From positions 96,001 through 160,000 of the forward strand of contig JBHLMN010000008.1 in assembly GCA_048938105.1 (NCBI GenBank): DNA of 64,000 bases, written 5' to 3'. This DNA comes from Promethearchaeota archaeon (GTDB lineage Archaea; Asgardarchaeota; Heimdallarchaeia; Hodarchaeales; Hodarchaeaceae). Both the position numbers and the translations under genes were made by a program. Every line of letters starts with the position of its first letter. Positions within the stretch are counted from its first letter, which is position 1. This document shows positions 1,311-15,485 of the stretch, one piece after another. Below the pieces are notes generated by a model that saw only the letters and a list, made by a program, of their open reading frames with translations, did not search any database and was not told the origin of the DNA.

Positions 1311-3647
1311 TCATTGATGTTCTTGAATTGCTTTTAAAACTCTATCAGGGGTATAAGGAGGTTCAGTTAAACGAATACCAATAGCATCATAAATTGCATT
1401 TGAAAGACATGGCATTGGTCCACTGATATTCGGTTCAGCAATTGATTTCGCACCAAATGGTCCTGTTGGCTCGTAAGTTTTAACAATAATGGTTTTTATT
1501 TCTGGTAGATCAATTGTTGTCATTACTTTATAATTCCCAAATGAGGGGTTCAACATCCTTCCCTGGGCGTTAAAATAATAACGTTCACTTAATGCATATC
1601 CTAATCCGTTTACTAATGCGCCTTCAGTTTGGCCAATGACCAATTTAGGGTTTATGGGAGTACCACAGTCTACTGCTGCTACATATCTCAGGACTCTTAC
1701 TCTTCCAGTCTCGATGTTTACCTCTACCTCTGCAAAATGAGCACAAAATGGGGGAGGCGATTTTCGTGCCAGTTCTGATGCAACCGCACCAATCTGTTGT
1801 TGATTTTCTGTGTAGAGAGCTTTTGTGCCTATCTCAGTAAAACTCAAAGATTTTTTAGTCTTGGGATGAAATACAGCCTTATTCTTGAGTTCGAGTTCAT
1901 TGATAGGTAAATTCAATAGGACTGCAGCATACTCAAGAACTTGTTTCTTTATTTTTTCAGCTAAATTCTTAACTGCCATCCCAGAGAGGTAGGTTGTAGA
2001 TGATGCATAAGCTCCCTTATCAAATGGAGTAATGTCTGTATCTGAAGAAAGGACAACAATATCAGATTCGATGTCAAGGTTTAAGACTTCTGCGAAAATC
2101 TGAGCTAAAACAGTATCACTCCCAGTTCCGATATCTGTTGCCCCAACCATAAGGTTGAAAGAGCCGTCATCATTCATTTTTGCATAAGCGCTTGCCATGT
2201 CTATATATGGTATTGCAGAGCCTTGCATGAGACATACTAACCCAAATCCTCTCTTTCTCGTTTCAGTATTGTATTTTTTCTTGTGTTCCTCCCGATTCCA
2301 CCATCCAATTGCATCAGCTCCAAGTTTAATACATTCTGAAAGCCCAACCGACTCTAGTGTTTGTTCATGTCCTTCGCCCCCTTCGCCAAGTGCTCTGAAG
2401 ATGGGGGAGGTCTCACCAGGTTTGATATGATTTAATAATCTAAATTCTGCTGGATCCATTCCGATTTTTCTTGCCAGTTCATCCATCACAATTTCCATTG
2501 CCAGTGCAGCTTGCGTACCACCATATCCCCTGTATGCACCTGCTATAGGAAGATTTGTGTAAACAGTGTCACCAACAATACGGATATTGTCACAGTGGTA
2601 CAATGGTAAGGTTTTACTTCCTGTATTACTTAATACTGTTAATCCATGAGTTCCATATGCCCCAGTATTGCTAAGCACTTTCATATCAATAGCAGTAATT
2701 GTTCCATCTTCCTTGACACCAGCTTTGAATCTCGTAGTCATTGGGTGACGAGTTCGTGCGGAAATAAACTCCTCCTTTCTTGTGTACTCCAATTTTACAG
2801 GTCTTTTTAGTTGAAGTGTAAAAGAAGCAGCAATTATCTCTGTAACAATTTCTTGTTTTACACCAAAACCCCCACCGATCCGTGGCTTTATTACTCTGAC
2901 TCTAGCTATTGGAAGATTCAAAACCTGTGCTAGTATTCTTCTTGCATGGTACGGAACCTGAGTAGCAGATCGTACAACTAATCGGTCATGTTCATCTAAA
3001 TAAGTAATTGAAATATGAGGTTCTAAAGGACAATGTTGACCATAATGATTCCGAACTGTACAATCTACAATATAATCAGCTTCAGCGAATCCTTGGTTAA
3101 TATCCCCTACTTCTGCATCTATATGAGCTACGTGATTGTTGGCTGGATCATAAAAAACAGGTATAAGGTATTTTGCATCTCTTTCATCATGGATCACTAT
3201 TTGGTTGCCTAAGGCTTGATCCCAATCGAATAGAGGTTCTAATATTTTATATTTTACCCGAATGAGTTTTATTGCTTCTTCAGCGATCTCTATTGATTCT
3301 GCTGCAACCGCTGCTACTCGATCTCCTACATACTTCACTTTCTTATTGAATAAACGAGTATCATATGGACTTGGTTCGGGGTAACCCTGACCTGCTGTTG
3401 TGTGAAGGACTTGAGAACAATTTTTGTGGGTGAGGATTCCTAATACTCCTGGGTGTTTTTCTGCTTCACTTGTGTCAATATCAGTGATTATGGCATGAGC
3501 ATGGGGACTACTTAGAAGTTTTACATGAACTAGGTCCTTGAAATCAATGTCATCCGTGAATAATGGTTTACCCATAGCCAAACTTAAAGCATCAACTTTA
3601 GGAACACTTTTACCAACTACTCTGCCTTCAAAAACCTTTGATTTTAT
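1311..3647 (-). CDS. Xanthine dehydrogenase-family molybdopterin-binding (large) subunit
   Basis: Motifs SPHAHA, GGGFGVKQ, AYRGYG, GTGSDT, DCGTPINP and GPFGAKSIAEP. The frame extends 22 codons upstream of the ORF-track TTG (3581) through the conserved VVGKSVPKVDA to ATA at 3647. Confidence 0.93.
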   Translation of the reverse strand: MKSKVFEGRVVGKSVPKVDALSLAMGKPLFTDDIDFKDLVHVKLLSSPHAHAIITDIDTSEAEKHPGVLGILTHKNCSQVLHTTAGQGYPEPSPYDTRLFNKKVKYVGDRVAAVAAESIEIAEEAIKLIRVKYKILEPLFDWDQALGNQIVIHDERDAKYLIPVFYDPANNHVAHIDAEVGDINQGFAEADYIVDCTVRNHYGQHCPLEPHISITYLDEHDRLVVRSATQVPYHARRILAQVLNLPIARVRVIKPRIGGGFGVKQEIVTEIIAASFTLQLKRPVKLEYTRKEEFISARTRHPMTTRFKAGVKEDGTITAIDMKVLSNTGAYGTHGLTVLSNTGSKTLPLYHCDNIRIVGDTVYTNLPIAGAYRGYGGTQAALAMEIVMDELARKIGMDPAEFRLLNHIKPGETSPIFRALGEGGEGHEQTLESVGLSECIKLGADAIGWWNREEHKKKYNTETRKRGFGLVCLMQGSAIPYIDMASAYAKMNDDGSFNLMVGATDIGTGSDTVLAQIFAEVLNLDIESDIVVLSSDTDITPFDKGAYASSTTYLSGMAVKNLAEKIKKQVLEYAAVLLNLPINELELKNKAVFHPKTKKSLSFTEIGTKALYTENQQQIGAVASELARKSPPPFCAHFAEVEVNIETGRVRVLRYVAAVDCGTPINPKLVIGQTEGALVNGLGYALSERYYFNAQGRMLNPSFGNYKVMTTIDLPEIKTIIVKTYEPTGPFGAKSIAEPNISGPMPCLSNAIYDAIGIRLTEPPYTPDRVLKAIQEHQ

Positions 3648-4114
3648 TGTTTTTCACCTCTCATCATTGCCGCAGCGTTAAGAACTGCTTTAAGCTGGCC
3701 AGAATAGCCAGTACATCGACAAAGATTTCCATCTAAAGCACGTTTTACATCATCTTTGGTCGGTGAAGGATTTCTATCCAAAAGTGCTTTAGCACTAATA
3801 ATTATCCCAGGGATACAAAATCCGCATTGCACTGCTCCTTCATCAACAAAAGCCTGTTGAAGAGGATGGGGATTTTCACGAGTACCAATTCCTTCAATCG
3901 TAGTTATTGAACCTTCATGAGCTTGAGCAGCGAACATTATACATGATTTAACTGCCCTTCCGTTCAGAATAATCGTACAAGACCCACATTCTCCTTCCAT
4001 GCATCCTCTTTTCACCCCTTTATACCCCTCCTTTCTTAAAACATCGATTAGGAGTTCATTGGGTTCAATTGTTAATATTTTTCTCTTCCCATTAATTATT
4101 ACATTAATTTCCAT
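3644..4114 (-). CDS. Xanthine dehydrogenase-family (2Fe-2S) small subunit
   Basis: GCxxGxCGSC..SC and QCGFC..GNLCRCTGY motifs. Confidence 0.95.
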   Translation of the reverse strand: MEINVIINGKRKILTIEPNELLIDVLRKEGYKGVKRGCMEGECGSCTIILNGRAVKSCIMFAAQAHEGSITTIEGIGTRENPHPLQQAFVDEGAVQCGFCIPGIIISAKALLDRNPSPTKDDVKRALDGNLCRCTGYSGQLKAVLNAAAMMRGEKQ

Positions 4115-4123
4115 TTTCTTTTC

Positions 4124-4942
4124 TCAACCTCCTTTCAGCTCATTCAACATTCGCCGAAATAACAATCCTAAAAGATGTTCTCGATAGGATTTTGAAGACC
4201 TATAATCAGCCACTATATTTATTGATTGCCTTAATGTTGTTACGGCTGTATCTATATCTAAATTAGATAATGATTTTCCCTTAAGAAATTCTTCCACCTG
4301 AATCACCCGTTGAGCTTTCGTTATACGAGATACTGCAAGACGAGGATCAACTATTATTCCATTCTCTTTTTTTGCTGCAAAAGCCATTGTAAGCCATGAA
4401 TAATCTACTGTAGTTAATGAAAACTTCTCATAACGACAAAAATAATTGTCTCTGAAAGGGAAAACAACTTCTGTTATGATCTCTCCTTTATGCAATTTGT
4501 CACCTTTGAAATAATCCTTCGCGGAAACCTTTCTAATTCCTCCCAGATTTCTTATTACTATTTCTGAGTCGAGAACGAGTAAAACGACTGGTAAACCCAC
4601 CCAAGGATAAGTTCCTGCAATATTGCCCCCAAGAGTGATAACATTACGGAGAGGAGTGTCACCAATGAGTTGACACGCTTCTGTTAATATTCCATTACCG
4701 ATTTTCCTTATGATAGGTGATTCGATTATTTCCGTGATCGTTGTTGTACTTCCTACCCGTGCAAATTTTTGGTCTTTCTTGATATAATTCAATCCTAATC
4801 GTGTAATATCAACAAAATTCGATATGGTTCGATTTTTTGATGTAGCTAGATGAGTTCCACCAGCAATAATTGCTGTAGATTCTTTTGTAAGTAAATTAAG
4901 TGCTTCTTCAAGGCTAGTAGGGTAAGAAAATTCTTGGGTCAT
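4124..4942 (-). CDS. Xanthine dehydrogenase-family FAD-binding (medium) subunit
   Basis: PTSLEEA, AGGT, RNVITLGGN and DYRSSKSYR motifs; lies in the operon with the large and small subunits. Confidence 0.92.
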   Translation of the reverse strand: MTQEFSYPTSLEEALNLLTKESTAIIAGGTHLATSKNRTISNFVDITRLGLNYIKKDQKFARVGSTTTITEIIESPIIRKIGNGILTEACQLIGDTPLRNVITLGGNIAGTYPWVGLPVVLLVLDSEIVIRNLGGIRKVSAKDYFKGDKLHKGEIITEVVFPFRDNYFCRYEKFSLTTVDYSWLTMAFAAKKENGIIVDPRLAVSRITKAQRVIQVEEFLKGKSLSNLDIDTAVTTLRQSINIVADYRSSKSYREHLLGLLFRRMLNELKGG

Positions 4943-5195
4943 ATCCTAAAAAACCTCCGCCGAGCGGAAAGGTAATCCATAGATGATCGCCATCTTTGAG
5001 TTCATAATCCATTGACATTCTTGTACCATTCACAATTGGAATTAAATGATTTAATTCTTTTTCAAGGAAACCGCTATCTATTAACAATTTTCCAACCAAT
5101 AATCCATCATTAAGCTCTGTGAGTTTCATTTTTCTTTTTTTACTTGGAAAAGGATTTCGAACTGCTGACATCAGTTCTATGGTTATTGAGATCAT
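4914..5195 (-). CDS. MoaD/ThiS ubiquitin-like sulfur carrier with a C-terminal extension
   Basis: IVNG..LKDGDHLWITFPLGGG beta-grasp signature, followed by 12 extra residues. Confidence 0.8.
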   Translation of the reverse strand: MISITIELMSAVRNPFPSKKRKMKLTELNDGLLVGKLLIDSGFLEKELNHLIPIVNGTRMSMDYELKDGDHLWITFPLGGGFLGYDPRIFLPY

Positions 5196-5380
5196 AGTAC
5201 ATCGGTTTAACAGTAATTCAATTAGAGGATAGTTTAGCTAAAAGAATTTGTAGCAATTTCCTTGCATCTTTATCACTCTGCCAAATGATCTATATAAGTA
5301 TAGTTTGCAAAAGAAAATCAGTAAAAAATCTAAAAAAGGAAAGAAATTATATTCTTTTACTTTCTGTTATTTTTTAACTC

Positions 5381-5986
5381 TTAATAATCATCCATTTTAG
5401 CTTTAAAATAAGTCATATCAGAAACATTATCAATATCGTATAGTATTCCTTGAAAGTTTGTTGGAAGGAATACAATTTTCTCTCTAAACTTTTCGATGAT
5501 TTCCTTCAAACCTCTTTTTTCTTCTGAAATATTTAAGACATGCTTAAAGAGCTGAGATCCAATTAAAATAGGATGACCCTTTTGTCTTTGGTAAGTAGGG
5601 ATGATCACAACAGGTGACATGGAGAGATAGTAATCGATCAGTTGGTCAAAGACCGTTGAGGGGATAAAGGGGATGTCTGCTGGTGTAATCATAATTGCCT
5701 GACTATCCAGCGCTTCTTCCATCCCTTGACGGATAGAGGAAGACATACCTCCCCTCTCATAATTAGGATTAAGGACGGTAATTATGTCATTGCATAAACC
5801 TTGGACTTTTTTATTGACTAATTCCGCATCATGTCCGAGAACCACTACTATTCGATCGACTTTAGAGGCTAGTATTGAACTCAGAAGCATTTCTATCATA
5901 GTGATATTTGGTTTGACCTCAAACAATAATTTGTTTCCATTAAATCGCTTCGACTCACCAGCAGCTAGTACAATACAGGTAATCAT
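5381..5986 (-). CDS. mocA: Molybdenum cofactor cytidylyltransferase (MocA-like nucleotidyltransferase)
   Basis: LAAGESKRF.NKLL, NPNY..GMSSSI, DIPF, GHP and DID motifs; next to an XDH-family operon. Confidence 0.85.
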   Translation of the reverse strand: MITCIVLAAGESKRFNGNKLLFEVKPNITMIEMLLSSILASKVDRIVVVLGHDAELVNKKVQGLCNDIITVLNPNYERGGMSSSIRQGMEEALDSQAIMITPADIPFIPSTVFDQLIDYYLSMSPVVIIPTYQRQKGHPILIGSQLFKHVLNISEEKRGLKEIIEKFREKIVFLPTNFQGILYDIDNVSDMTYFKAKMDDY

Positions 5987-6079: not shown

Positions 6080-6784
6080 ATGATAGAAATTGGATATTTA
6101 CTAATTTTTTGGATAGTTGCATGCATCTTCATCATTTTTAAGAGCATTAAAATCGAAGAGATTCGAGTTGAAAGCGAAATAATTCATAAATTGATTAATT
6201 TTAGCAGCCCTTTCATCAAAGGAGTGCCTGCGATTCTTGCAGCTCTATTTGTTTTAATTATGAGGTCAAGTGACTCTCTTTTCTTTTTTGTCTTAATTGG
6301 GGCATTTCTCTTCTGTTTTGCAGGAGATTTAGGAATGGAAAAGGGGATTTTAGTAGGACTTCCCCTCTTCTTAATCGCTCAGCTCCTTTTTAGTATTGCT
6401 TTTCTTGGCCAAGCGTTTTCAATTGGTATATCATTCGAAACTTTAATACCAACAGCTGTTGTAATCGGTGTTGTAGTCGGATATATGTTCATGTTTCTTC
6501 GTTATCTTGATTCATCTGAGACTGGACTTGGAGAGTTTAAAATTCCTGTCATCATGTATTGCCTAGTCATTAGTACAATGCTTATCTCTTCATTCCTCCT
6601 CTGGATTACTTTAGGAATCTTGGAAGTCATTGTGATGATTTTAGGAGCAATAATCTTCGTTATTTCTGATTCAATTATTGGTATTCACGAGTTTCATCAT
6701 AAAATTTCAAGAAACGTTTTGAAGGTTATGGGGACTTATTATATGGCCATTTTCCTCCTCTCATTAGGTGTTCTATTAATATAA
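6080..6784 (+). CDS. YhhN/TMEM86 lysoplasmalogenase-family membrane protein
   Basis: Multi-TM protein with K.VP, F.F.GD, PV..Y, GA..FVISD and VM.TYY.A motifs. Confidence 0.8.
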   Translation: MIEIGYLLIFWIVACIFIIFKSIKIEEIRVESEIIHKLINFSSPFIKGVPAILAALFVLIMRSSDSLFFFVLIGAFLFCFAGDLGMEKGILVGLPLFLIAQLLFSIAFLGQAFSIGISFETLIPTAVVIGVVVGYMFMFLRYLDSSETGLGEFKIPVIMYCLVISTMLISSFLLWITLGILEVIVMILGAIIFVISDSIIGIHEFHHKISRNVLKVMGTYYMAIFLLSLGVLLI

Positions 6785-6804
6785 CTAATGACCAGGCTTA
6801 TTGG

Positions 6805-7971
6805 TCATTCACCTTTCGATCCAAAAGCAATTGTGAGGACCTCAGTGATGTTCTCCCATTCTTGATCTATTTTTTCCCATGTACGGTAGTCTTGGAACAA
6901 TCTTTTTCGAAAAGGAAGGATCATTTGAGCCATTAAAGAAAGCTTTTCTTGAGTAGGATGCTCTAGGATTTTTCTTTCAACGTTCTTAAGTGATTCTTTC
7001 TCCCAATTTGGATATATTTCTCCAAGCTGTTCACCTAAGAATAAACCTAGCTCTAATCCCGTTAGAATTCCAGAGCCTCCCGAAGGAGTAACCTGTCCTG
7101 CAGCTTCCCCAATAATAAAACAATTGTTTGAATAGACTTTAGACACTGGCCCTCCCATAGGTATTGTTGTCTGGATTGTTTCATAGAATCTCGAAGTTTG
7201 GATTTTTTCTTTGATTATAGGACTGTGTAATACTTCTTCCCAAATTTCCCAATAACTTGGTAGTGGATCTGTGGAGACTTCTGGAAAAATAATAAACCCA
7301 AATTCAGCATTTTGGTGTCCATGAGGAAAAATAAAACTTGTACCTGCTACATTCAAATTAGTATCTGAGAAAAAGAGAAATTCCATATCATTCTCATTAT
7401 AATCACCGAAAAAATGCCCTCTAATAATTGGACAAAGAGGACCTGGTTGAGGTAATTGCTGACCTTGTGCTGTTAAGCTGTTCGCTCCTTCTGCTCCAAC
7501 CACTACTCGTGAAGTTAAAATTTTAGATGTGTTTTTTACCACATTTTTAGTAAATACTTGTAATCGCTCATCAGGTAATAGAACAAGATTGGTTGCTCTG
7601 GTGTTTACTCGAAGAAATACATCTTCCATTACAGATTGTTTGGCAAGCTCGGTTTGAAAAAGACGGAAGTCAATCCACACTCTGTCAATATTGTCTTCAA
7701 GATGGAATGCTTTTTTCCCCGAAGGAGAGTAATAATTTCTACCAAACGACTTAATCTCATTAACAAAAGCCTTAGTAGGGAGGTCTTTCGGGAAAATCTT
7801 TGTTAATAATTTCGGACGATAGTGAATGGATTGCCCTTTTATTTGATTCCCGATCGCTGGCTGTTGATCTAAAACTAATACTTTTTCCACACCCCTTCGT
7901 TTAGCTCCTAATGCTGTTGCTAGACCAGCAGGTCCAGCTCCAATTATGATTAAATCAAATTCATTTTTCAT
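6805..7971 (-). CDS. Geranylgeranyl reductase-like FAD-dependent oxidoreductase
   Basis: GAGPAG Rossmann motif, VVGAEGANS, FIFP, IPMGG and GEAAGQVTPSGGSGI. Confidence 0.78.
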   Translation of the reverse strand: MKNEFDLIIIGAGPAGLATALGAKRRGVEKVLVLDQQPAIGNQIKGQSIHYRPKLLTKIFPKDLPTKAFVNEIKSFGRNYYSPSGKKAFHLEDNIDRVWIDFRLFQTELAKQSVMEDVFLRVNTRATNLVLLPDERLQVFTKNVVKNTSKILTSRVVVGAEGANSLTAQGQQLPQPGPLCPIIRGHFFGDYNENDMEFLFFSDTNLNVAGTSFIFPHGHQNAEFGFIIFPEVSTDPLPSYWEIWEEVLHSPIIKEKIQTSRFYETIQTTIPMGGPVSKVYSNNCFIIGEAAGQVTPSGGSGILTGLELGLFLGEQLGEIYPNWEKESLKNVERKILEHPTQEKLSLMAQMILPFRKRLFQDYRTWEKIDQEWENITEVLTIAFGSKGE

Positions 7972-8147: not shown

Positions 8148-11100
8148 TTGAAGTACAAAACATTATTTAAACAAGTAATAAATATTAACCTCGTTATAGA
8201 ATCTTTCGCTGCAGGAATGATATTTATGGTAACTACTGACATAGAAATGAAACCCGCCGCTCTTAGTGGTCATTCAATCAAGTTAGATGAACTTGTTTCA
8301 AAATTAGATTCCAATCTTGAAAATGGGATTTCTCAAGAGTACGCTACAAAAAGACTTGAGGAAGTCGGTTTTAATGTTATTCCCAAACCTAAGCAGAGTT
8401 TTTGGCAAGTATACTTAGCTCCGTTGTTAAACACATTAATTGTTATCTATTTGATAATGACTGCTTTTATTCTTCTCTTGGCGCTCATTTATCTATTCAT
8501 TAATCCTGATGATACAAGTATATGGATCACTGCAGCCCAATGGATAGTGATTGTCGGTGTGAACTTCCTTATTGCTATTATTCAACAAGCAAGAGCTCAG
8601 AAAAAGATCGAAGCTCTTCATAAAATGGCTGCACCAGAAGCTCGTGTAATCAGGGATGGAAAAGAACACGAGATCCCAACTGAGGAAGTTGTACCAGGAG
8701 ACATTATCAAAATCGCCCAGGGTGATAAAATACCTGCAGATTCTCGTATCATAAAGTCAAGTTCTCTCCGTGTAAATGAATCGTCTTTAACTGGGGAAAG
8801 TGTTCCTGTAACAAAAGTGGAGTCGGGAGAACCTGTGTTTGCTGAAGATACACCTATTGGTGATCGAAAAAATATGCTATTTAACGGAACATTTGCAACA
8901 ATGGGTTCAGGCTTAGCATTAGTTGTTAATACGGGGGGAAATACAGAATTTGGAAAAATAAGTCTTGAATTAGAGCAATTAAACACAGGAGACATTCCAA
9001 TCCGTCAGAAAGTGAATGTCATTGGGAATTATTTAGCATTTGGTATGTTGGTTGTTTTTAGTATGCTAATTATTTATCAGGGAGCTGTGATTCTTGACAA
9101 ATTGAAATATGGAGAACTCAGCTTTGCCGAACCAGTTCTATTGATTGGTGAGATTATTTTCTCCCTTAGCAACATTATCATCAAAGCCATGAGCGTTGTC
9201 CCCATCAATATCCCTCTATTAACTACAATTATTTTGATTACTGGCGTTCTAGCTATGGCTAAACATCGGGTAATCATTCGAAATCTGGCTTCAATAGAAA
9301 GTTTAGGGAGAATTAGTGTTCTCTGTTCTGATAAGACAGGAACAATCACCGCTGGTCAGATGACTGTGAAACGGATTTGGGATGCTACCACAGGTAAGCA
9401 CTATTATGTCACTGGTTTAGGGTATTCTCCAGAAGGTAAGATAGTTGAATTAAAAGAAGATGATGATAAAATAGTTGAAAAAGATGCTAAAACTTATACT
9501 GAGTATACTGTTGAACTAGACTCGTCTTTAGGTATGTTGATAACATCTGGTATGTTAAATAACGATTCCGAAATCATAAAAGAATTTATTGAAGCAACAG
9601 GCCAATATGTGTATGATGGAACTGGAAGTCCAACCGAATCGGCCCTCTTAGCATTATTTAATAAAACAGGGATGGAAAAAAATAAGATAGAAGAAGAATT
9701 TGAGCTTTTAAGAGAGTATCCTTTTGACTCATCTTTAAAACGGATGAGTAAAGTCTTTAAAACCAAGAACGAGATCTTTGTGTTTTGTAAGGGAGCTACT
9801 GAAGTCCTTTTACCAAAATGCTCTTACATTGGATTTGGAAAGAATCGAGAAAAAATAACAAAAGAGCATAAGGATAAAATTATGGATTATATGGAAAAAT
9901 TTGCTGGCCAAGGTTATAGAATATTATCTTTTGCATATAGAAACATAGATAAACTTCCAATGAAGGGAGATGAGGAACGAGATGAAGTAGAAATCGATCT
10001 TTCATACCTCGGTTTTGTTACAGTACTAGATCCTCCTCGTGAACGTGTTGATGAATCAGTAAATGAAACATTGCAAGCTGGAATCATTCCAATTATGATC
10101 ACAGGCGATTCACCTCTGACTGCCTCCTCTATTGCTAATAATATTGGTATGGTATACTTGGAAGAACACCAAACACATGAGGGGAAAATGGCATCCCAAC
10201 TAGCGGATAGAGATTTCACAAACACACGGGTTTTTGCACGTGTGGCACCTCAAGACAAACAGATCATTGTTGCACGGTATCAACAGCAGCAGCGAGTTGT
10301 TGCTATGACAGGTGATGGAGTCAACGATGCACTCGCCCTTAGTATGGCAGATGCGGGGATAGCTATGGGAATTGCTGGTACAGAAGTAAGTAAGCAAGCA
10401 GCAGATCTTGTTATTGCTGATGACTCTTTTAACTCCATTGTAACAGGAATTAGAGAGGGACGTGCTCTCTTTCAAAGGATTCGTGTTATTATCTTTTTCT
10501 ACATATGTGCTAATTTAGCTGAAGCTGGTTGCTATATCGGTGCCTCCTTCATTTCAGGATTCATTCCAGGTTTTGAATTAATGGATCATCTCCAACGAGC
10601 CTATATTTTTGGTATTGCACACTCTTTTCCTCCTCTAGCATTGATCATTGATGGTATTCCCAAGGATATCATGGATAGAAAACCAATTGATACTGCTGGA
10701 ATATTTAACAAGAGATTAGCTTTAACATTATTATTAACTTCGATCAGTCTGGCTACCGTTATTTATATCGTTTACTTCATTACTTATTTTGCTTTCATCC
10801 CCGTGAATGAAGTTTTTGTTGAGGGATTTTACAGACCTATTTTCCAGACTGAGGTTGAAACCTACCCTGATGTCCCGAATTTAAGACCACAAAATTGGAA
10901 TCATGCTAAAGCACGGACATACATGCATACAATACTTTATATCGCTATTCCTCTAATTATTCTCTCAATTCGTAGAATTGACAAATCTCTCATACGAGCA
11001 ATCAAAGAAGACTCTTATTGGTATACATATGTTCTGGCGTTCTCAATCTTACCTTTACATCTAATCTTAATGTACATCAAGGAAATCCAGGAATTAATTG

Positions 11101-11237
11101 CTAGATTTGGAGTTTATGTTGACATTATTGCCCTTGATATCAGTGACTGGCTTTTATGTATCATTGCGGCACTCATTCCACTTTTAGTACTGGAAACAAC
11201 AAAATGGATTAATAGATTGAGAGGACAATATTACTAA
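8148..11237 (+). CDS. P-type ATPase (P2-like scaffold) with an atypical ion-binding site; true start probably ATG 8217 or 8226
   Basis: TGES, DKTGT, KGA, DPPR, MITGD and TGDGVND motifs; about 10 TM; M4 reads VVPINIP. Confidence 0.93.
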   Translation: MKYKTLFKQVININLVIESFAAGMIFMVTTDIEMKPAALSGHSIKLDELVSKLDSNLENGISQEYATKRLEEVGFNVIPKPKQSFWQVYLAPLLNTLIVIYLIMTAFILLLALIYLFINPDDTSIWITAAQWIVIVGVNFLIAIIQQARAQKKIEALHKMAAPEARVIRDGKEHEIPTEEVVPGDIIKIAQGDKIPADSRIIKSSSLRVNESSLTGESVPVTKVESGEPVFAEDTPIGDRKNMLFNGTFATMGSGLALVVNTGGNTEFGKISLELEQLNTGDIPIRQKVNVIGNYLAFGMLVVFSMLIIYQGAVILDKLKYGELSFAEPVLLIGEIIFSLSNIIIKAMSVVPINIPLLTTIILITGVLAMAKHRVIIRNLASIESLGRISVLCSDKTGTITAGQMTVKRIWDATTGKHYYVTGLGYSPEGKIVELKEDDDKIVEKDAKTYTEYTVELDSSLGMLITSGMLNNDSEIIKEFIEATGQYVYDGTGSPTESALLALFNKTGMEKNKIEEEFELLREYPFDSSLKRMSKVFKTKNEIFVFCKGATEVLLPKCSYIGFGKNREKITKEHKDKIMDYMEKFAGQGYRILSFAYRNIDKLPMKGDEERDEVEIDLSYLGFVTVLDPPRERVDESVNETLQAGIIPIMITGDSPLTASSIANNIGMVYLEEHQTHEGKMASQLADRDFTNTRVFARVAPQDKQIIVARYQQQQRVVAMTGDGVNDALALSMADAGIAMGIAGTEVSKQAADLVIADDSFNSIVTGIREGRALFQRIRVIIFFYICANLAEAGCYIGASFISGFIPGFELMDHLQRAYIFGIAHSFPPLALIIDGIPKDIMDRKPIDTAGIFNKRLALTLLLTSISLATVIYIVYFITYFAFIPVNEVFVEGFYRPIFQTEVETYPDVPNLRPQNWNHAKARTYMHTILYIAIPLIILSIRRIDKSLIRAIKEDSYWYTYVLAFSILPLHLILMYIKEIQELIARFGVYVDIIALDISDWLLCIIAALIPLLVLETTKWINRLRGQYY

Positions 11238-13897: not shown

Positions 13898-14584
13898 TTA
13901 CTTTTCGGGTTTAACACAAAGGATCTTAGATAAGTGGCTAGGAATCTTATATTCGGTGTTATTTATTTCTACGGAAACTCCTTCTGTATCCCTATCTTTA
14001 ACAACTATTTTTGTATCAATCTCATGAATCTGATATGATTCCAGTTCTTTAATGGTTTCTGTTGAATGACTGCTAATTCTAGTCAAGATAACTATGTTTC
14101 CAGTCGGGATATCGACCAAGTTTTGATCATCACAACCTAGATCCTCAACGTCTCCCATTGGAATTATGTCTCCAAATGGAGTTTTTTTATCTTTCAGTTT
14201 TTTAAAGATTATTTCAGCAAGACGATCCGATATCCCATGTTCTAAGTAACACGCCTGTTCATGAAGCTCACTAAATGGTACATCAAATATTTGATAAAGC
14301 ATTGCTTCGGCCAGTCTATGATTTCTTGCAATTCGTCGTGCAACTTGATATCCTAGTTTAGTCAAGAGGATCCCATCATACGGTGTATAATCAACATAGC
14401 CCCGAGGTTCTAATTTCCGCCGTACGATGTTTGTTAATTGGGTTTTAGCAATATCTTGGTCTAATTTATCTAAAATCTCTCCCATCTTTATCCGTTGTTT
14501 CATCTCTTTGTTAATAGTAATATCAAAAAGAACTTCCATTATCTCTTCTTCAATGTTCCTAAGATCAAATTTTTTTTCATGCAT
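13898..14584 (-). CDS. DtxR/MntR-family metal-dependent transcriptional regulator with a C-terminal FeoA-like domain
   Basis: wHTH ..GYVDYTPYDGILLT..G, HRLAE, ACYLEH metal ligands and TPFGD.IP. Confidence 0.9.
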   Translation of the reverse strand: MHEKKFDLRNIEEEIMEVLFDITINKEMKQRIKMGEILDKLDQDIAKTQLTNIVRRKLEPRGYVDYTPYDGILLTKLGYQVARRIARNHRLAEAMLYQIFDVPFSELHEQACYLEHGISDRLAEIIFKKLKDKKTPFGDIIPMGDVEDLGCDDQNLVDIPTGNIVILTRISSHSTETIKELESYQIHEIDTKIVVKDRDTEGVSVEINNTEYKIPSHLSKILCVKPEK

Positions 14585-14735: not shown

Positions 14736-15485
14736 TTGTCACTCATGTCATTATTTACTCATATTCGCATTATAACATATTTCATTTTTACTATTCTCGT
14801 TCTTATTATATCTTTCTTCCCTGAAGGATGGTTAATCTATTATCTAATAACAACGCCAGAACTTGATGAAATATACTACCTTTTGTCCCCTCTGTACCTC
14901 TTTATAGCCTACTGCGGAACAGTTTTTTTCTTCGGTGTTGTGCATTCTCAATTCGTTGTGCGACTCCTACTCCCCTACCAGATAAAACCAGGTAAATATC
15001 CACATCACTCTTCAATGGGACGATTGGTAGCTGTAAGGATAACAGCAGATGGTATTTTCAAATCCATGTTAAAGGTGTTTACCTTCATTCCTTTTATTTG
15101 GGGGATCTTCCTCTTTCCCTATGGTTTAAGGTTATACGGACTTAAATGTGGTAAAAACGTCCACATTGCTACAAGGACATACATTGAAACCGGTGGTTTA
15201 GTTGAGATTGGTGATAATTCGTTTATCGGGTATAATAGTGTAGTAACAGGACATGCTAATGAAGATCGTGCTATTGTTGTCGATCCTACAAAAATCGGTA
15301 AAAATTGCTTAGTAGGGACTTATTCAATAGTTGCTTGTGGTTGTGAACTTGGAGATGGTAGTACTTTAGGAGGGATGAGTGGTATGCTAAAAGGGCAAAA
15401 AATCCCACCTAATGAAATCTGGATTGGTATTCCTGCAAAATATCTTAGAAAACGTGGTGAAAAAGAAACCACTGTCACCGAGTAA
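14736..15485 (+). CDS. Membrane-anchored left-handed beta-helix (hexapeptide) acyltransferase
   Basis: N-terminal TM helices, then G.KCGKNVHI, VEIGDNSFIG, TKIGKNCLVG and W.GIPAK. Confidence 0.82.
   Translation: MSLMSLFTHIRIITYFIFTILVLIISFFPEGWLIYYLITTPELDEIYYLLSPLYLFIAYCGTVFFFGVVHSQFVVRLLLPYQIKPGKYPHHSSMGRLVAVRITADGIFKSMLKVFTFIPFIWGIFLFPYGLRLYGLKCGKNVHIATRTYIETGGLVEIGDNSFIGYNSVVTGHANEDRAIVVDPTKIGKNCLVGTYSIVACGCELGDGSTLGGMSGMLKGQKIPPNEIWIGIPAKYLRKRGEKETTVTE

Follow-up and report, generated by a model that had tools for sequence, protein, structure and literature searches.

The window described here is a stretch of 64,000 nucleotides (positions 96,001 to 160,000 of the forward strand of contig JBHLMN010000008.1, GenBank assembly GCA_048938105.1) from a Promethearchaeota archaeon of the Hodarchaeales, an Asgard host that a first-pass annotation of the bare sequence had correctly suspected. 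It carries a P-type ATPase gene whose fourth transmembrane helix (M4) reads PINIP where Ca2+-ATPases read PEGLP. To judge from its sequence, the product is a working P-type ATPase of a distinct, Asgard-centred clade that is sister to the prokaryotic P2A pumps. The catalytic motifs are all intact (TGES, DKTGT, KGATE, DPPR, TGD and TGDGVND), so the enzyme would run an ordinary E1/E2 phospho-enzyme cycle. From the residues at its transport site, we infer that it is not a Ca2+ pump.

The true start of the gene is probably the ATG at 8217 or 8226 rather than the TTG at 8148, because homologues align from residue 27 of the query and a TATA-like ttatttaaa precedes both ATGs; the protein would then have ~1003 residues. 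Five Pfam domains score over their cut-offs, namely Cation_ATPase_N, E1-E2_ATPase, Cation_ATPase, Hydrolase and Cation_ATPase_C. The protein has ten helices. An AlphaFold2 model computed with 54 relatives as input is confident (predicted local distance difference test, 86.9; predicted template modelling score, 0.80), and its best fold matches are SERCA2b, SPCA1, SERCA1 and Na,K-ATPase, with LMCA1 also matched. Among solved structures, the best phmmer matches of the whole pump are P2A Ca2+-ATPases (LMCA1, SPCA1/PMR1 and SERCA1/2; E 6e-113 to 1e-96).

In SERCA, Ca2+ site I comprises N768, E771, T799, D800 and E908, and site II comprises carbonyl groups of M4 together with E309, N796 and D800. 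We took residue equivalences from phmmer alignments of the pump to solved pumps and then mapped them onto this scheme. M4 of the pump reads SVVPINIPLL, in which vvPINIPll pairs with aiPEALSSI of Listeria LMCA1, placing I353 on the gating Glu. Likewise, yiFgiAHsfPplal of M6 pairs with lfiNlvNDslPaial of LMCA1, so that F821, A824 and H825 lie on N, N and D; in the phmmer alignment to Na,K-ATPase, F821 and H825 fall on both M6 Asp residues. The first-pass annotation had read intact catalytic motifs, PINIP in M4, a retained N..E in M5 and the replacements E309 to I, N796 to F, T799 to A and D800 to H; its coordinates for PINIP were exact, and the alignments to LMCA1 and Na,K-ATPase bear out each replacement. 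By this mapping, Ca2+ site II appears erased (Ile and Phe or Tyr), the D800-type Asp common to both sites is now His, and site I appears rebuilt.

To follow these positions through the family, we collected relatives by a word-indexed search and an exhaustive HMMER search (~270 proteins) and compared 143 PINIP-family members with 97 PEGLP-type sequence neighbours in a 241-sequence alignment. Every match above ~470 bits (identity 32–91%) combines an M4 motif of the form P-[IVF]-[NS]-[ILF]-P with an M5 N..E and an M6 His, and below ~450 bits the matches flip abruptly to PEGLP with N..TD. The M4 motif is PINIP in 111 of the 143 members, PISIP in 14 and another P-x-[NS]-x-x variant in 18; all 97 neighbours have PEGLP or variants of it. 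The M6 His is present in 142/143 members, against Asp in 88/97 neighbours, and the M5 residues E792 and N789 are kept in 143/143 and 135/143. Because it is conserved in 143 relatives, the PINIP pattern lies far beyond chance: it is a clade-wide signature and not decay. The close homologues with PEGL that would have marked the changes as a local degeneration do not occur, and the suspicion that this is no standard Ca2+ pump is supported. In one divergent lineage (P0138), His825, Glu934, Asn789 and Asn354 are all altered together, a joint change which hints that these four residues act as one site.

The possibility that the protein no longer transports anything, being a relic or a regulatory ATPase, has to be set against this conservation. 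The classic ligands are indeed lost, and the sub-clade of this copy has further lost the M8 Glu. We nevertheless regard such a loss of transport as highly improbable, given that dN/dS (the ratio of nonsynonymous to synonymous substitution rates) between the pump and its orthologues is 0.05–0.10, indicating purifying selection, that neither the catalytic motifs nor the new membrane residues vary across ~70% sequence divergence, and that two paralogues are maintained per genome.

The family departs from the PEGLP-type sequences well beyond M4 and M6 (Table 1). At the M1 positions of P92 and Y101, the P2A counterparts have Gln and Leu. In M2, Q147 is found in 138/143 members (Glu in 94/97 PEGLP neighbours) and Q151 in 123/143 (Glu in 86/97). 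Trp132, Met348 and Tyr819 are also specific to the family. The outer loop between M7 and M8 holds an insertion whose conserved Asn column corresponds to residue 891, a Val in this copy; the loop of the pump aligns weakly to the L7/8 loop of Na,K-ATPase, which binds the beta-subunit.

Table 1 Features of the pump gene and its surroundings (positions in the window; M, transmembrane helix)
Feature	Position	Strand	Remarks
P-type ATPase gene	8148–11237	+	One open frame, 1029 codons from TTG
M1 segment VYLAPLLNTLIVIYL	8409–8453	+	Family-specific Y89, P92, N95 and Y101; kept in at least 118/143 members, differing from the 97 PEGLP-type sequences
M2 with W132, N139, Q147 and Q151	8541–8603	+	Q147 and Q151 stand for the conserved Glu pair of PEGLP pumps
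Actuator motif TGES	8790–8801	+	Motif scan
M4 motif PINIP	9201–9215	+	I353 at SERCA E309 position, N354 at G310 position
Phosphorylation motif DKTGT (Asp395)	9330–9344	+	Invariant columns
KGATE motif	9789–9803	+	Motif scan
DPPR motif	10029–10040	+	Motif scan
P-domain hinge motif TGDGVND	10308–10328	+	Invariant columns
C-terminal membrane half (residues 740–1029)	10365–11237	+	
M5 CANLAEA	10506–10526	+	N789 and E792 at SERCA N768 and E771 positions
M6 QRAYIFGIAHSFPPLAL	10593–10643	+	Y819, F821 (N796), A824 (T799), H825 (D800), S826; His825 codon 10620–10622
Long M7–M8 outer loop with family-specific insertion	10794–10904	+	Column gapped in 97/97 PEGLP sequences
M8 AKARTYMHTILYIAIPLIILSIRR	10905–10976	+	H927; I934–P935 at SERCA E908 position, Glu in 104/143 members
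M9 with family-specific His971	11043–11075	+	His in 121/143 members; mostly Gln in P2A
Molybdenum hydroxylase operon, then MobA-like nucleotidyltransferase	1311–5986	−	Large MoCoBD, 2Fe-2S and FAD subunits
YhhN-family (lysoplasmalogenase-like) gene and GGR-like FAD oxidoreductase	6080–7971	+ and −, respectively	Just upstream of the pump
DtxR-family (Fe_dep_repr_C) repressor	13898–14584	−	Beside the transferase
Hexapeptide-repeat transferase	14736–15485	+	

What the first-pass annotation had missed is that site I appears to survive in most of the family: Asn789 and Glu792 are retained, together with the M8 Glu in 104 of the 143 members, and it is the sub-clade of this copy that has lost the M8 Glu. 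The combination of H927 with I934–P935 in M8 is shared by exactly 35 members, which form that sub-clade (Hodarchaeales; at least 65% identical), and no compensating acid occurs elsewhere in the membrane part of these 35 proteins. After the loss of the M8 Glu, a single carboxylate is left in the membrane core of this copy.

The retained M5 Asn, M5 Glu and M8 Glu could be taken to mean that the family still pumps Ca2+ by a mechanism confined to site I, and the nearest hidden Markov models, the nearest solved relatives and the database annotation are all those of Ca2+-ATPases. We consider this very unlikely. His occupies the place of the Asp that bridges the two Ca2+ sites, the acids of the entry path are gone, the M8 Glu is lost in this copy, and PEGLP pumps co-exist in the genome. 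To our knowledge, moreover, all known single-site Ca2+ pumps (LMCA1, PMCA and SPCA) keep site II, not site I.

Profile models place the pump within the superfamily and below the cut-off of each subfamily scored. It reaches 261 bits with the P-type ATPase superfamily model (TIGR01494; cut-off 62.3). It scores 421.9 bits with the PMR1-type Ca2+ model (TIGR01522; cut-off 798.3), 416.7 with the ENA model (TIGR01523; 645), which ranks second and matches in a single stretch over residues 50–877, and 398.6 with the SERCA model (TIGR01116; 703.4). Lower scores were obtained for PMCA (P2B; TIGR01517, 360.5 against 507; site II ligands absent), Na,K (P2C; TIGR01106, 340 against 946), H+ (P3A; TIGR01647, 312.6 against 615.5), Mg (296 against 611), P5 (TIGR01657, 245.9 against 618; no PPxLP in M4) and P4 (TIGR01652, 112 against 431). 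When 46 diverse members were scanned with NCBIfam, the best E-value was 3e-162 (PMR1-type), and, judged by best E-values rather than bit scores, none of them appears to reach a subfamily cut-off. At the positions of the M4 Glu, M6 Asn and M6 Asp that characterize P2A pumps, this protein has Ile, Phe and His; its ten helices, its Cation_ATPase_N and Cation_ATPase_C domains, its fold and its position in the tree are those of a P2 scaffold.

Trees were rooted on the P1B pumps of the same genome, with five Asgard P3A pumps and one fungal ENA added as references and P2B, P2C, P3B, P4 and P5 left out; the IQ-TREE trees were fast trees with the Shimodaira–Hasegawa-like approximate likelihood ratio test. 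The PINIP family formed one clade without intruders (FastTree support 0.94–0.96). IQ-TREE recovered the clade as well, in re-rooted trees from which we take the topology and no support value for this branch, and placed it as sister to the PEGLP P2A pumps, with ENA and P3A farther out. The phylogeny with references that had been proposed in the first-pass annotation thus yields, within this reference set, a P2-type offshoot of its own, the exact rank of which would depend on method and references. As a working definition, we describe the clade by P-[IVFLW]-[NSM]-[ILF]-x in M4, the invariant M5 Glu, the M6 His, the M2 Gln pair, the M7–M8 insertion and monophyly. The pump fits this description, its one deviation being the M8 Glu (I934).

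The C-terminal membrane half behaves somewhat differently from the whole protein. Its best matches among solved structures are Na,K- and non-gastric H,K-ATPases (E 1e-13), followed by SERCA (1e-9) and LMCA1 (2e-8), and the Na,K-type match takes in MGIAGxxVSKQAAD and the long M7–M8 loop; with residues 765–1029 alone, phmmer gave no PDB match at 1e-5. A search for archaeal P2C pumps in the class of small genomes reached from a locus labelled Methanosarcinales gave no TIGR01106 match, and no beta-like conserved neighbour was found among the family loci. A search for CDC50 gave no match, its control being equally silent. The ESM Atlas returned only generic P-type clusters, and a locus search with the generic patterns of the family alignment returned mostly PEGLP pumps. 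Among longer proteins inspected for fused forms, we found only a fungal double ENA.

In a sample of 300 Asgard genomes, roughly 210 gave a match at E below 1e-140, many of them two. Outside Asgard archaea, occurrence is sporadic, with a Korarchaeota member and Dehalogenimonas etheniformans. The copy of the latter is 43% identical. No second match as strong as E 1e-160 turned up in the 251 Chloroflexota genomes sampled, and this isolation within the phylum makes transfer from archaea its probable origin. Pairs of PINIP-family genes, mostly back to back, occur in several Asgard families (loci L014, L017, L137, L143, L146, L151, L152, L156, L157 and L163–L166), one member reading NLAEA in M5 and its partner NLFES; such pairs suggest an ancient duplication after which neither copy was lost. 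The genome studied here holds a second, more divergent PINIP paralogue (contig C21:704–2878, minus strand, locus L008; NVFEG in M5, TVHIFPG in M6), which is cut by the end of its 2.9-kb contig and groups with P0131. The same genome also encodes two PEGLP Ca2+-type pumps, a P3A H+ pump, CopA and a Zn/Cd P1B pump, so that Ca2+, Cu+ and Zn2+ are already covered. It further contains an odd P2-like paralogue (contig C63:120034–123015, plus strand, locus L003; PEGLI in M4, IHLICDGPSD in M6) that sits on a very long branch and fits no curated subfamily. P3A H+-ATPases over the NCBIfam cut-off (L168–L172 and others) were found in 44–46 of the 300 Asgard genomes, some with two or three copies. Databases annotate PINIP-family members as Ca2+-transporting, and an Asgard transporter survey files such proteins under putative Ca2+-ATPase (TC 3.A.3.2.21); our literature search found no paper describing the family and no match for PINIP-type motifs.

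We then analyzed gene neighbourhoods. Clustering of 699 neighbouring open reading frames from 46 loci of many genera revealed lineage-specific synteny only (ketopantoate hydroxymethyltransferase, subtilase, MFS, HDAC and GNAT proteins, among others), and no neighbour was kept across lineages; those conserved within a lineage are housekeeping genes without relation to the pump. The YhhN, GGR-like and DtxR-like genes recur only in three loci of the same genus. Within that genus, YhhN lies directly upstream of, and co-directional with, the pump in a 66%-identical orthologue, and the pair of DtxR-type repressor and hexapeptide transferase is syntenic with the pump only in its genomes.

These neighbourhoods bear on the idea that the protein pumps a divalent metal (Mn2+, Fe2+, Zn2+, Ni2+, Co2+ or Mg2+) through Glu, His and Asn, with the M8 Glu or His927 as a further ligand. 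A His with carboxylates and Asn is a typical metal ligand set, the sub-clade of this copy trades the M8 Glu for a nearby His, and in several loci metal-homeostasis genes lie within 2–6 kb of the pump: the DtxR-family repressor here and in two loci of the same genus, genes for Fur and FeoB in the vicinity of the Dehalogenimonas copy, and ZnuABC-type genes in locus L015. Even so, metal transport seems unlikely to us. No metal-type neighbour is kept across lineages in the 46 loci, and the entry funnel, acidic in divalent-cation pumps, has become neutral here, with one carboxylate remaining in the membrane core of this copy. The known metal P-type pumps (P1B), two of which are present in the genome, rely on Cys/His motifs within a different scaffold. 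The family proteins yielded neither a metal-binding extension nor a fused domain.

The first-pass annotation had suggested a new substrate or, from the Ile at the E309 position that recalls PISL of P4 flippases, a lipid or organic-cation transporter on a P2 scaffold. The departure from Ca2+ pumping stands; the step from Ile to a lipid or organic cation is not supported. Asgard P3A pumps over the NCBIfam cut-off read IPVALP in M4 and have an M5 Arg and an M6 Asp, and plant H+ pumps read GGIPIAMP in M4 (PMC9708826). Because H+-ATPases normally have a hydrophobic residue at this position and fungal Na+ pumps lose E309 and/or D800, Ile is not diagnostic of a flippase. A flippase or pump for lipids or organic cations (amines or polyamines) on this scaffold might still draw on the aromatic-rich site (Y89, Y101, W132, Y785, Y819 and F821), which recalls cation–pi cages, and on YhhN and the GGR-like flavoprotein just upstream. 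On balance we find it quite doubtful. The actuator motif is TGES wherever a motif scan found one in family members and never DGET, the second M4 Pro and the M5 N..E are kept, and the low P4 and P5 scores and a fold that matches SERCA, SPCA and Na,K-ATPase first agree with the earlier view of a P2 scaffold that is no true P4. The bulky residues would fill site II instead of opening it, and the YhhN and GGR-like neighbours, confined to the same genus, are absent from 42 loci of other genera.

Tentatively, we favour a single-site pump for H+ or Na+, in which Glu792 would carry the ion and His825 would act as its partner or built-in counter-ion; the counter-ion concept is discussed in a recent review (PMC10654040). 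Hydrophobic side chains would fill site II (E309 to Ile, N796 to Phe or Tyr), His replaces the Asp common to both Ca2+ sites, and neutral residues take the place of the acids in the cytoplasmic entry funnel (Gln147 and Gln151 in M2, Pro92 in M1). What remains would be a site at the old site I made of the M5 Glu, the M5 Asn, the M4 Asn, the M6 His and, in most members though not in this copy, the M8 Glu. One small cation, most likely H+ or Na+, may be moved per cycle, with the Glu as the binding or protonatable group. We prefer a monovalent ion because negative charge is lost from both the site and the entry funnel. Asgard P3A, plant H+ and fungal ENA pumps set a precedent, as they move monovalent ions although E309 or D800 is missing. 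The ENA model also nearly equals the best Ca2+ model for this pump (416.7 versus 421.9 bits), whereas a canonical paralogue scores 540 versus 702. The anatomy, its conservation, the clade and the purifying selection are what we observed, and from them we infer the substrate and the role of the Glu–His pair.

Several points weigh against an H+ or Na+ pump on this plan. Transition metals, too, are well served by Glu, His and Asn ligands, and the neighbourhoods supply no conserved operon partner that would indicate an ion. Most Asgard genomes with P3A H+ pumps also have the PINIP family, and in them a further H+ pump would be redundant in part. Finally, the placement of the clade differs by method, as FastTree puts it outside the group of P2A, ENA and P3A.

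A broader proposal is that the PINIP clade is a new subfamily ranking with P2A–P2D, built around a site-I-only Glu–His site with a substrate or coupling rule new to P2 pumps. It might, for instance, be an electrogenic pump for H+ or Na+ that is gated by histidine and serves as the main Asgard P-type ion motor, or else a metal or organic-cation pump, and the M8-Glu-less Hodarchaeales sub-clade would be further specialised. Taken whole, this is possible but somewhat unlikely in our estimate. P-type ATPases rank with the best understood of all pumps. The family would in any case repay study, being labelled Ca2+-transporting in databases yet lacking the residues that make a Ca2+ pump. Determining its substrate would correct thousands of annotations and reveal which ion gradients are maintained by P-type pumps in the archaea closest to eukaryotes. 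It would also add to the mechanistic picture a case in which nature has redesigned a transport site, erasing site II, keeping site I and turning Asp into His. On present evidence the family has no bearing on the origin of eukaryotic lipid flippases, and its interest is mainly for pump specialists and for Asgard genome annotation.

Among known systems, the P2A Ca2+-ATPases (LMCA1, SPCA1/PMR1 and SERCA1/2) share with the family ten helices, the motifs TGES, DKTGT, KGAxE, DPPR, TGD and GDGVND, and the M2 Asn, M5 N..E, M6 Gln816 and M10 Glu. The family differs from them by PINIP in place of PEGLP, F..AH in place of N..(T/N)D in M6, neutral residues in place of the M1 and M2 entry acids, and a long M7–M8 loop insertion; it scores about half of the curated P2A cut-offs. 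P3A H+-ATPases (AHA2, Pma1 and archaeal L168–L172) resemble the pump in the hydrophobic residue at the E309 position and the P-x-x-x-P spacing, and in a site cut down to one acid and one basic partner; by analogy with them, we propose an electrogenic single-ion logic for the pump. Their acid, however, is an M6 Asp and their base an M5 Arg (PMC10654040), against an M5 Glu and an M6 His here, and they branch well away from the PINIP clade.

The ENA pumps (P2D) of fungi, mosses and protozoa offer a monovalent-ion P2 pump without E309 (NcENA1 reads IPAS) and/or D800; the fungal ENA sequence P0285 has Ser at the D800 position. In NcENA1, A343E lowers function, and His and Glu in M5 are proposed to lie at site I. 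Unlike the pump, ENA proteins keep the M6 Asn, have no M6 His, are eukaryotic and branch outside the pair formed by the family and P2A. P4 flippases share the Ile at the gating-Glu position of M4 but differ in the DGET actuator, the missing second M4 Pro, other M5 and M6 residues, the CDC50 partner (P4A) and their restriction to eukaryotes. A 2023 review that recognizes families P1–P6 notes that only one family has been added since 1998 and that undescribed diversity exists in prokaryotes (PMC10654040). That review also describes P6, represented by mycobacterial CtpE (Ca2+ uptake), which is like the PINIP family a prokaryotic offshoot with the M6 Asp replaced; CtpE keeps PEGL, has Ile rather than His in M6, and belongs to another clade with another distribution.

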